A DNA stretch of 64,000 nucleotides, from the NCBI RefSeq assembly GCF_000002075.1, contig NW_004797274.1:2653473-2717472 (forward strand), written 5' to 3'. This stretch comes from Aplysia californica. Its lineage: Eukaryota. This document shows, one piece after another, positions 57,263-58,387 of this stretch. Made by a program: the position numbers and the translations under genes. Below the pieces are notes generated by a model. It did not search any database, was not told the origin of the DNA, and saw only the letters and a program-made list of their open reading frames with translations. Each line of letters begins with the position of its first letter. The stretch's first letter is position 1.

Positions 57263-58387
57263 GTCTTCTCCTAATCCACGTCTTACTTTCCTTTTNNNNN
57301 NNNNNNNNNNNNNNNNNNNNNNNNNNNNNNNNNNNNNNNNNNNNNNNNNNNNNNNNNNNNNNNNNNNNNNNNNNNNNNNNNNNNNNNNNNNNNNNNNNNN
57401 NNNNNNNNNNNNNNNNNNNNNNNNNNNNNNNNNNNNNNNNNNNNNNNNNNNNNNNNNNNNNNNNNNNNNNNNNNNNNNNNNNNNNNNNNNNNNNNNNNNN
57501 NNNNNNNNNNNNNNNNNNNNNCTGTAACTTGTCCAACCAAAGCACATCTATCTAGATTTAGCTGGTAGCATATACACAGTTAATGATTTGTCAAATTTAA
57601 GATTCATTTTCAAACGTCATTTTGGAAATTACACAAATGTATGACGAGACCGTGTAGATGCAGACACAGGGTGCTTGATTGGGGAGTTTGAGGCCGCTCC
57701 CCCCGAGGCGAGGGGATACAATATTGTGTGTAAATTGTTCCCTCTCGACTCGGGTTCGAGGATCCTGTGTCGGAATCTCCGCAACTTCATATATAAATAA
57801 GTATAAAGTCTTTAACCCAATTGTGAATTGCTGCCTGCAAACCCCTTACGAAACCCCAAAAATAATCTCTACCACTGTACTAGCTACCTACTAAGGTCCT
57901 CTCTTCACTTGTCTTGGTCCGCTAGAATAGGCTAATACTAACAAGGTCACCATAGCAGAGACTGTGCCCACCATTTCGGAACTTCACGGTGACATTAAAG
58001 ATGGTTCCAGTAGGGAACGGGATAGCGGGTGCCCACATCCCTCGTGACTCATCAGAGCAGAGGAAGATAGGACTAACGCTAACATTATTTTTTTTTAAAC
58101 AACAACAACAACCAAATAACAGAAGCATGTTTTCTTATAATTATAAACGTAAGCACCATCCCACATCATCACTTACCACCACCATCACCGTCATTTCTAA
58201 GGTCATCATTGCTCTCAGAGCCTTCACAAACATCTATAATTATCTTAAACATCTATATGTAACAGTTATATGTCATAACAAATTTGTACGTTATACATTA
58301 TTGGGCACTCTCATACGCACATTTTTCTACTAATCAGATGGCGTCAATATCCTAGAAATGGGCAAGGGACCAAAAAAAAAAAAAAAA
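54682..58387 (+). mobile_element. 5'-truncated L1/Tx1-clade non-LTR retrotransposon with poly(A) tail and 15-bp TSD
   Basis: AGGAACAAGGGTCGG occurs at 54667-54681 and 58388-58402. A-run from 58372. Target context is TTT/AGGAA. Contains the RT ORF; an N-gap lies at 57296-57521. Confidence 0.9.

Follow-up and report, generated by a model that had tools for sequence, protein, structure and literature searches.

A conserved three-way-junction RNA structure in the 3′ UTR of an L1-group LINE of Aplysia californica and the recurrent start of its copies at one loop position

The 5′ truncation of LINE copies is a long-open question, and the causes usually invoked are random loss of processivity or host repair. 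In LINEs of the zebrafish L2 type, a 3′-terminal stem-loop is reportedly recognised by the LINE proteins. An Alu stem is bound by the L1 ORF2 protein, ORF2p (available part of PMC10830416). The ribozymes known from retrotransposons are of the hammerhead, HDV-like, twister and twister-sister-like types, and those of the HDV-like and LINE-1 kinds sit in 5′ UTRs, according to the available text of PMC11620745. For R2 elements, the genomic 5′ junctions record the site of RNA self-cleavage (PMC3774820, excerpt).

The stretch of A. californica DNA analysed here, referred to as the window, is 64,000 nt long. The 3′ UTR of a LINE within it holds a real, selected and unannotated RNA structure with a nucleotide-precise genomic footprint, and new here is that 28 of the 95 copies that reach loop L2 of this structure begin exactly at position 57694. 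Since about 30 % of the copies reaching this nucleotide of a conserved fold begin at it, the cause of truncation becomes testable. Reading cut sites off the 5′ ends of fossil copies is applicable to LINE families of any genome. Neither the element nor the break site is described in the full-text literature searched; a consensus could be held in Repbase, subscription journals or supplements, which lay outside that scope. The portions of PMC5786205, PMC4494074, PMC4758252 and PMC11203168 that were available contain no description of the element.

The host LINE and the fold in its 3′ UTR

The LINE copy in the window spans 54682–58388 and lies between 15-nt target-site duplications (Table 1). The host element is an L1-group non-LTR retrotransposon. 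A full copy (L054) encodes ORF1 and, downstream of it, a 1244-aa ORF2 with an APE-type endonuclease, a reverse transcriptase (RT) and a C-terminal zinc knuckle, and copies have a poly(A) tail, target-site duplications and frequent 5′ truncation. The best solved relative of ORF2 is human L1 ORF2p (E 4e-68; R2, 5e-26). From protein motifs, the element is tentatively assigned to the Tx1 clade; no named reference was found among the 120 homologues listed or in the Atlas clusters of one homologue. Related repeats flank the LINE at 54098–54190 and 58437–58479, and suggest insertion into an older repeat. Elsewhere in the genome, two near-identical copies share the same 3′ flank (L051–L053, a tandem segmental duplicate), and an in-frame internal repeat of ORF2 in one of them gives a 2408-codon open frame, possibly an assembly error.

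Table 1. Features of the LINE copy and of its 3′ UTR (positions in the window)
Feature	Position	Strand	Remarks
5′ target-site duplication, 15 nt	54667..54681	+	Identical 15 nt after poly(A)
5′-truncated ORF2 (RT + zf-RVT), L1-group LINE	54682..56910	+	Domain matches
Element 3′ UTR, ~1.46 kb	56911..58371	+	Common to other copies up to shared poly(A)
UTR block	57059..57270	+	77–88 % in family B; no stable fold (z +2.4)
Domain 1, three-way-junction RNA	57652..57782	+	Includes 4 extra basal nt per side
P1 5′ strand	57656..57678	+	Inner 5 bp fully covary with family C
P2 hairpin, 6–7 bp	57681..57702	+	U-G closing pair; 8-nt loop L2 (57688–57695)
Fixed break point, G57693 / pyrimidine 57694	57693..57694	+	First base of 28/95 copies
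P3 long hairpin	57703..57753	+	Two small internal loops; variable terminal loop
P1 3′ strand	57756..57778	+	
Domain 2	57896..58075	+	91 % in B, 78 % in C; weak predicted fold; broad 5′-start zones
Conserved 3′ tip	58321..58371	+	86 % in B, 67 % in C
Poly(A) tail + 3′ target-site duplication	58372..58402	+	

An earlier note, made from the sequence alone, had described a three-helix junction RNA in the LINE 3′ region, and the fold in the window is confirmed as described. P1, given there as 23 positions with 3 mismatches, contains 18 Watson-Crick pairs, 2 G-U pairs and 3 mismatches. The arms of P2 (57681–57687/57696–57702, enclosing the 8-nt loop) and of P3 (57703–57722/57734–57753) pair as stated, and the linkers, put at 0–2 unpaired bases, are of 2, 0 and 2 nt. 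The G-U pairs on the + strand, noted there as expected for selection on the sense RNA, were also found, with 4 of the 38 core pairs G-U and none A-C. The minimum free energy is −67.2 kcal/mol (z −5.53), which none of 200 shuffled sequences equalled; the minus strand gives −51.9 (z −4.0), leaving the sense strand 15 kcal/mol more stable. Among the 2078 strand-windows of 125 nt that were scanned, this was the most stable fold besides an array of TCTAGA palindromes at 52136–52286.

The location in a LINE 3′ region likewise holds, as other copies share the sequence from ORF2 to the poly(A) and the copy has its own 15-nt target-site duplication. A search of the same genome with the fold gave 331 candidates, of which 40 were scored and 30 loci examined; all 30 match the window down to the common poly(A) at 58371, and the fold lies about 600 nt upstream of it. 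Consistent with the absence of a recognised RNA family in the earlier note, Rfam gave no match at E≤10 save a 13.7-bit chance hit. A DNA-transposon terminus or MITE was rejected, given the G-U bias on the + strand and the internal position of the fold in the LINE UTR in all copies examined. The three outcomes that had been named as counting against the structure (energy no better than shuffles, no compensatory changes, and a transposon terminus) were not encountered.

Further features of the window include a 168-nt element with perfect 24-nt inverted ends (52594–52761, MITE-like), a larger inverted-repeat element (53344–53884), and a tRNA-like sequence at the Rfam threshold (58865–58933, 29.2 bits), probably a SINE head. 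Within the UTR, the block at 57059–57270 may be a signal read as sequence. Domain 2 is a second unannotated RNA element. It is more conserved than Domain 1, contains the invariant words ACUAAC and UUUCGGAAC and a hairpin with a variable tetraloop, and its motif has 673 exact matches in the genome. A word reminiscent of the hammerhead, on the minus strand of this domain, proved to be the variable tetraloop, and an HDV-like reading of domain 2 fails in family C.

Sister families and selection on the fold

The family of the window is designated A. Its sisters in the same genome, B, C and D, were found via the C-terminus of ORF2, which is 53–57, 37 and 33 % identical to that of A, respectively. 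Between A and B, identity is 91 % in both the fold core and domain 2 and 86 % in the 3′ tip, compared with 54–67 % in the spacers and 40 % (10 of 25) at four-fold sites of ORF2. A covariance model trained on 24 A and B copies only locates the matching site in C on the sense strand, with 24–37 bits in the best copies; as plain hairpins score up to 19 bits with this model, C matches below 20 bits were not counted as evidence and those of 24–37 bits were.

Folded independently, the A, old B, young B and C sequences all give the same junction with an 8-nt P2 loop, and some P1 pairs are lost in young B. The P2 stem length, closing pair and loop size are kept across A, B and C, as are the U and GG of the loop and the U-G identity of the closing pair. 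When A is set against the majority sequence of C, to which it is 51 % identical, 14 of 29 core pairs have changed and 11 of these still pair, including all 8 that changed on both sides (simulated P 3e-4 to 4e-3, with one 4-nt gap placed by hand and the structure taken from A). A MAFFT alignment made from sequence alone places the helices in register. Double-sided changes are seen there in 7 of 19 pairs, and pairing holds in 94 % of cells, compared with 32–58 % when the partners are slid. This covariation comes essentially from two independent lineages in one genome, which is not a deep alignment. Both the selected, cis-acting sense-strand structure proposed in the earlier note and the compensatory changes it had asked for among diverged homologues are supported by the A–C changes, together with conservation above that of the flanks and synonymous sites, and on this comparative evidence the fold is very probably under selection.

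For family D, the A/B model found no match in the 3′ UTR (L041), which has a branched fold of its own. This young and abundant family carries an ACUAAC-bearing block. A family C copy (L207) carries an inverted duplicate of the 3′ strand of the junction, joined ahead of its 5′ strand (fold-back), and in another (L042, 1083–1097 and 1441–1455) a 15-nt word is common to the P3 3′ strand and domain 2, which hints at duplication or at an alternative inter-domain pairing.

Relatives of the element were sought in viral contigs and none were found. A single exact-pattern match in metagenome contigs was a chance hit inside a bacterial gene; the contig concerned (L101, 12–4916) encodes six tandem related genes of 240–310 aa with signal-peptide-like starts. 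Contigs of prokaryote bins that bear LINEs (12 of 70 loci, 24–36 % protein identity) gave matches of the model to generic hairpins only. The L1-group ORF2 contigs in several prokaryote bins (L278–L302) are most likely host contamination.

Copies that start at position 57694 and their possible origin

The main count used a genome-wide listing of the 20 bases preceding 57695, which returned 95 rows, including the window's own copy, and 0 in the control. By hand count, 30 of the 95 rows have unrelated flank directly upstream, i.e. start in L2, and this is an undercount since the search pattern left out rows with C as the first letter. The pyrimidine of 57694 is present in 28 of the 30 (p 4e-7 against 0.5), as C in A and U in B, and G is found at 57693 in just 5 of the 28, which is the chance level. 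The 18 nt upstream hold 2 starts among the 95 rows, and the binomial tail for the spike is below 1e-24 even if 2 % per base is assumed. With a second anchor, 15 of 76 copies start at 57691–57696 and about 3 in 57643–57689; with a third, distant one, 4 of 17 at-risk A/B copies start at 57693–57695 and 0 of 12 in 57643–57689. Among 99 distinct copies, 36 are partial and mostly start at 57693–57702.

In 90 A/B copies, drawn from 98 of the first 100 of the 673 domain 2 motif places, smaller clusters of starts were seen at 57709–57732, 57770–57780, 57930–57948 and 57967–57980. These clusters lie at other structured places, which shows that structure by itself is enough to raise truncation. The L2 site is sharper than any other, and the starts in domain 2 are spread over about 11 bases (57970–57980). 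A polymerase stall is expected at the 3′ foot of a helix. The break site is not at such a foot and lies within the unpaired loop L2.

The spike was not seen in family C, with 0 of about 19 true copies in one count, and 2 of 17 with starts elsewhere in or at the loop in a second (Fisher p 0.02, taking 1 of 19). The C loop differs in sequence and has insertions of mixed length in 11 of 29 copies, possibly but not necessarily left by the same event. The 5′-start search in family D was saturated by long copies. One copy that starts at the break (L144, 1485–1910) carries the 34-nt top of P3 as 12 tandem repeats; the repeat joint is present in contigs of three runs, and the repeats may record RT jumping repeatedly across the helix. 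Loose ends at 57695–57696 in contigs of two sequencing runs are explained by the genomic short copies.

A duplication of at least 9 nt within 3 nt of the junction was found in 13 of the 22 short copies with a readable 3′ end. As these target-site duplications abut the break, the ends were formed at insertion. Some junctions are clean and others have 1–3 extra bases or microhomology. On a tree of 71 copies (33 of 104 were omitted because the 3′ end was not readable or contained N), 21 short copies are found on A and B branches that range in age from oldest to youngest, and the short-copy label requires 17 changes, compared with a mean of 18.5 when shuffled. Because they are scattered, there is no single SINE-like master and the break recurs from the LINE RNA. 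Recurrence of the break at insertion is thus shown in both the A and B lineages.

The reading that we tentatively prefer, and would put just short of an even chance, is a structure-directed cut of the LINE RNA in L2 (G57693^Y). The cut would be the work of the fold or of a cell nuclease recognising the loop, and these two routes, self-cleavage and cleavage by a protein, appear about equally likely. A share of transcripts would be cut in L2. The 3′ piece, which comprises domain 2 and the 3′ tip in 678 nt followed by poly(A), would remain bound by ORF2p, and reverse transcription would run as far as its new 5′ end. A template that begins at a defined position accounts for the sharp upstream limit of the starts and for those that trail off over a short distance downstream, the latter presumably through loss of a few bases on joining, and uncut transcripts would give the longer copies. 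Cutting would part the coding part from the poly(A) and so might limit the life of the mRNA, as a built-in brake; alternatively, it might release a stable 3′ RNA. What the element would gain from cutting its own mRNA is not obvious. No copies ending at the break site were found, and all 5 deviating rows read through, as is expected for a piece without poly(A), and this gives cutting no support.

The 5′-end spike at 57694 lends support to one of the options raised in the earlier note, a new self-cleaving motif, the cleavage being putative. A new ribozyme class, consisting of a three-way junction in a LINE 3′ UTR with a G^Y cut in its own hairpin loop, is nevertheless unlikely on present sequence data. 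In such a ribozyme the junction would perhaps dock on domain 2, about 200 nt downstream. UGAGG of L2 could pair with the invariant domain 2 word CCUCG in A and B, ending at the break, as one of about 20 candidate pairings, and no conserved pseudoknot partner for L2 was found above chance (18–23 candidates per family). Against self-cleavage stand the few conserved unpaired junction bases and the lack of a known ribozyme core, and against cutting of either kind stands family C, which keeps the fold without the spike.

A serious rival, though in our estimate not a probable one, is a protein roadblock. Here the RNA would be intact and RT would stop one base 3′ of a bound GAGG, held by a protein (ORF2p, ORF1p or a host factor) or in a tertiary contact; RNP assembly or transport would be the reason why the fold is kept, and the spike would be a by-product. 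This agrees with the loop and closing-pair bases kept in all three families, with the shoulder of starts on the P2 3′ strand (57696–57705), and with human L1 ORF2p, which binds a template stem-loop and for which stem changes alter product lengths (PMC10830416, available part). The G-run expansions of the C loop would fit pausing and slipping of RT there, as would the deletion of 6 nt from the loop of the B copies L065 and L166. However, P1, P3 and P2 have already been opened when RT reaches 57694, and a hairpin-dependent binder should by then be gone. A G-quadruplex stop was rejected, as C has four runs of G3+ and no spike and A has two runs and the spike. A stall of the exonuclease XRN1 is improbable. 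Decapped LINE RNA would be eaten 5′ to 3′ with a halt, of the kind known from flavivirus xrRNAs, 8 nt before P3, and the stable 3′ piece would then be retrotransposed. The piece from 57694 does fold with 8 free nt ahead of an extended P3 in A and old B, and, like the viral xrRNAs, which sit in 3′ UTRs and are often in tandem as far as the source excerpts describe them, the LINE UTR contains a pair of conserved domains, each showing raised 5′ starts. However, as the end is inside the junction, the exonuclease would have degraded P1 and P2 by the time it stalled, although both covary; the remainder is a plain hairpin without a conserved pseudoknot, C keeps P3 without the spike, and there is no Rfam xrRNA match.

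Transcription starting internally at 57694, to give a short, UTR-only, SINE-like RNA, is very improbable. The sharp edge would fit, as would a GGTTCGA core about 60 nt downstream in A, at the position of a polymerase III B box. That word is incomplete, altered in young B and missing in C, the short copies begin with a pyrimidine that follows G and differs between families, no cap-like extra G occurs among the clean short-copy junctions, and the short copies form no clade of their own, unlike self-promoting elements. We give the least credence to the view that the inverted repeats are neutral, or that the break arose in DNA, either in folded cDNA or once the copy had inserted. A fold is also predicted for the minus strand, and a folded cDNA loop could be nicked during insertion, but target-site duplications at the junction exclude later deletion, and neutrality is largely refuted by conservation far above synonymous sites, double-sided changes and the sense-strand G-U bias. 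A splice donor or branch point was rejected because the edge misses a GU/GC donor by one base, family C lacks a donor and the starts around ACUAAC are scattered, and piRNA slicing because, from the sequence, there is no A at position 10 and the first base varies.

If the RNA cuts itself, it would represent a new ribozyme class, the first in a LINE 3′ UTR within the literature searched, and the genome would hold dozens of fossils of its cleavage product. If a protein cuts or blocks at L2, the site would mark a specific host or ORF2p contact.

Comparison with known systems

The element fails each known ribozyme class on the features tested, and may work like them. For the HDV-like class there was no Rfam match, a rough descriptor was negative on both strands of A, B and C, and the 3′ piece folds as a hairpin and not as a nested double pseudoknot with conserved L3 and J4/2. 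The hammerhead (CUGANGA/GAAA core, cut after NUH) was rejected as it gave no Rfam match and a negative descriptor, and the linkers are of 2, 0 and 2 nt. Twister, twister-sister-like and pistol gave no Rfam match and were negative with rough descriptors, the break here being G^Y in a terminal loop; hatchet, judged by Rfam only, gave no match. A tRNA-derived SINE or polymerase III unit is excluded since A and B boxes are not kept and the copies have no clade of their own. IRE1 substrates are cut at CNG^CNG in a 7-nt loop; here the loop is of 8 nt with A at −3 and the descriptor is negative, although looser IRE1 rules are a possibility.

The junction of an xrRNA is knotted and follows the new 5′ end. 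The flavivirus xrRNA/sfRNA system resembles the present one, as far as the available source text goes, in having a three-way junction in a 3′ UTR that is tied to a defined 3′ sub-fragment. An xrRNA fold was rejected here because the end lies inside the junction and a pseudoknot is not supported by conservation above chance.

The stem-loops read by LINE proteins are likewise conserved sense-RNA structures of the UTR, and Domain 1 may, like them, bind ORF2p. In the excerpts available, those stem-loops lie at or near the priming end, whereas Domain 1 is 600 nt upstream and larger. One third of the copies that extend to Domain 1 lose most of it and hundreds of shorter ones lack it, so it is not needed for priming.

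The HDV-like ribozymes of R2, R4, RTE and L1Tc are also structured cis elements whose cut is recorded in 5′ junctions (PMC3774820 and PMC11620745, each in part). They sit at the 5′ end and make a full-length template, as described in those parts, whereas here the element is in the 3′ UTR, the piece is free of coding sequence and the cut is putative. Unlike in them, there is no nested double pseudoknot, the first position is not G, and the break falls in a hairpin loop. The twister-sister-like ribozyme of LINE-1 is, similarly, a candidate motif inside the UTR of an L1-group LINE. That motif lies in the 5′ UTR and is cut at C^A, within the internal loop that separates two stems (available text of PMC11620745); here the break is G^Y, the loop is a terminal one on a three-way junction, and the location is the 3′ UTR. 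Preferred 5′ truncation points are also suggested for SVA, an RNA mobilised by L1. Those are described, in the accessible part of PMC10681720, as potential hotspots, without a structure or mechanism, whereas here a single nucleotide takes about 30 % of the at-risk copies.
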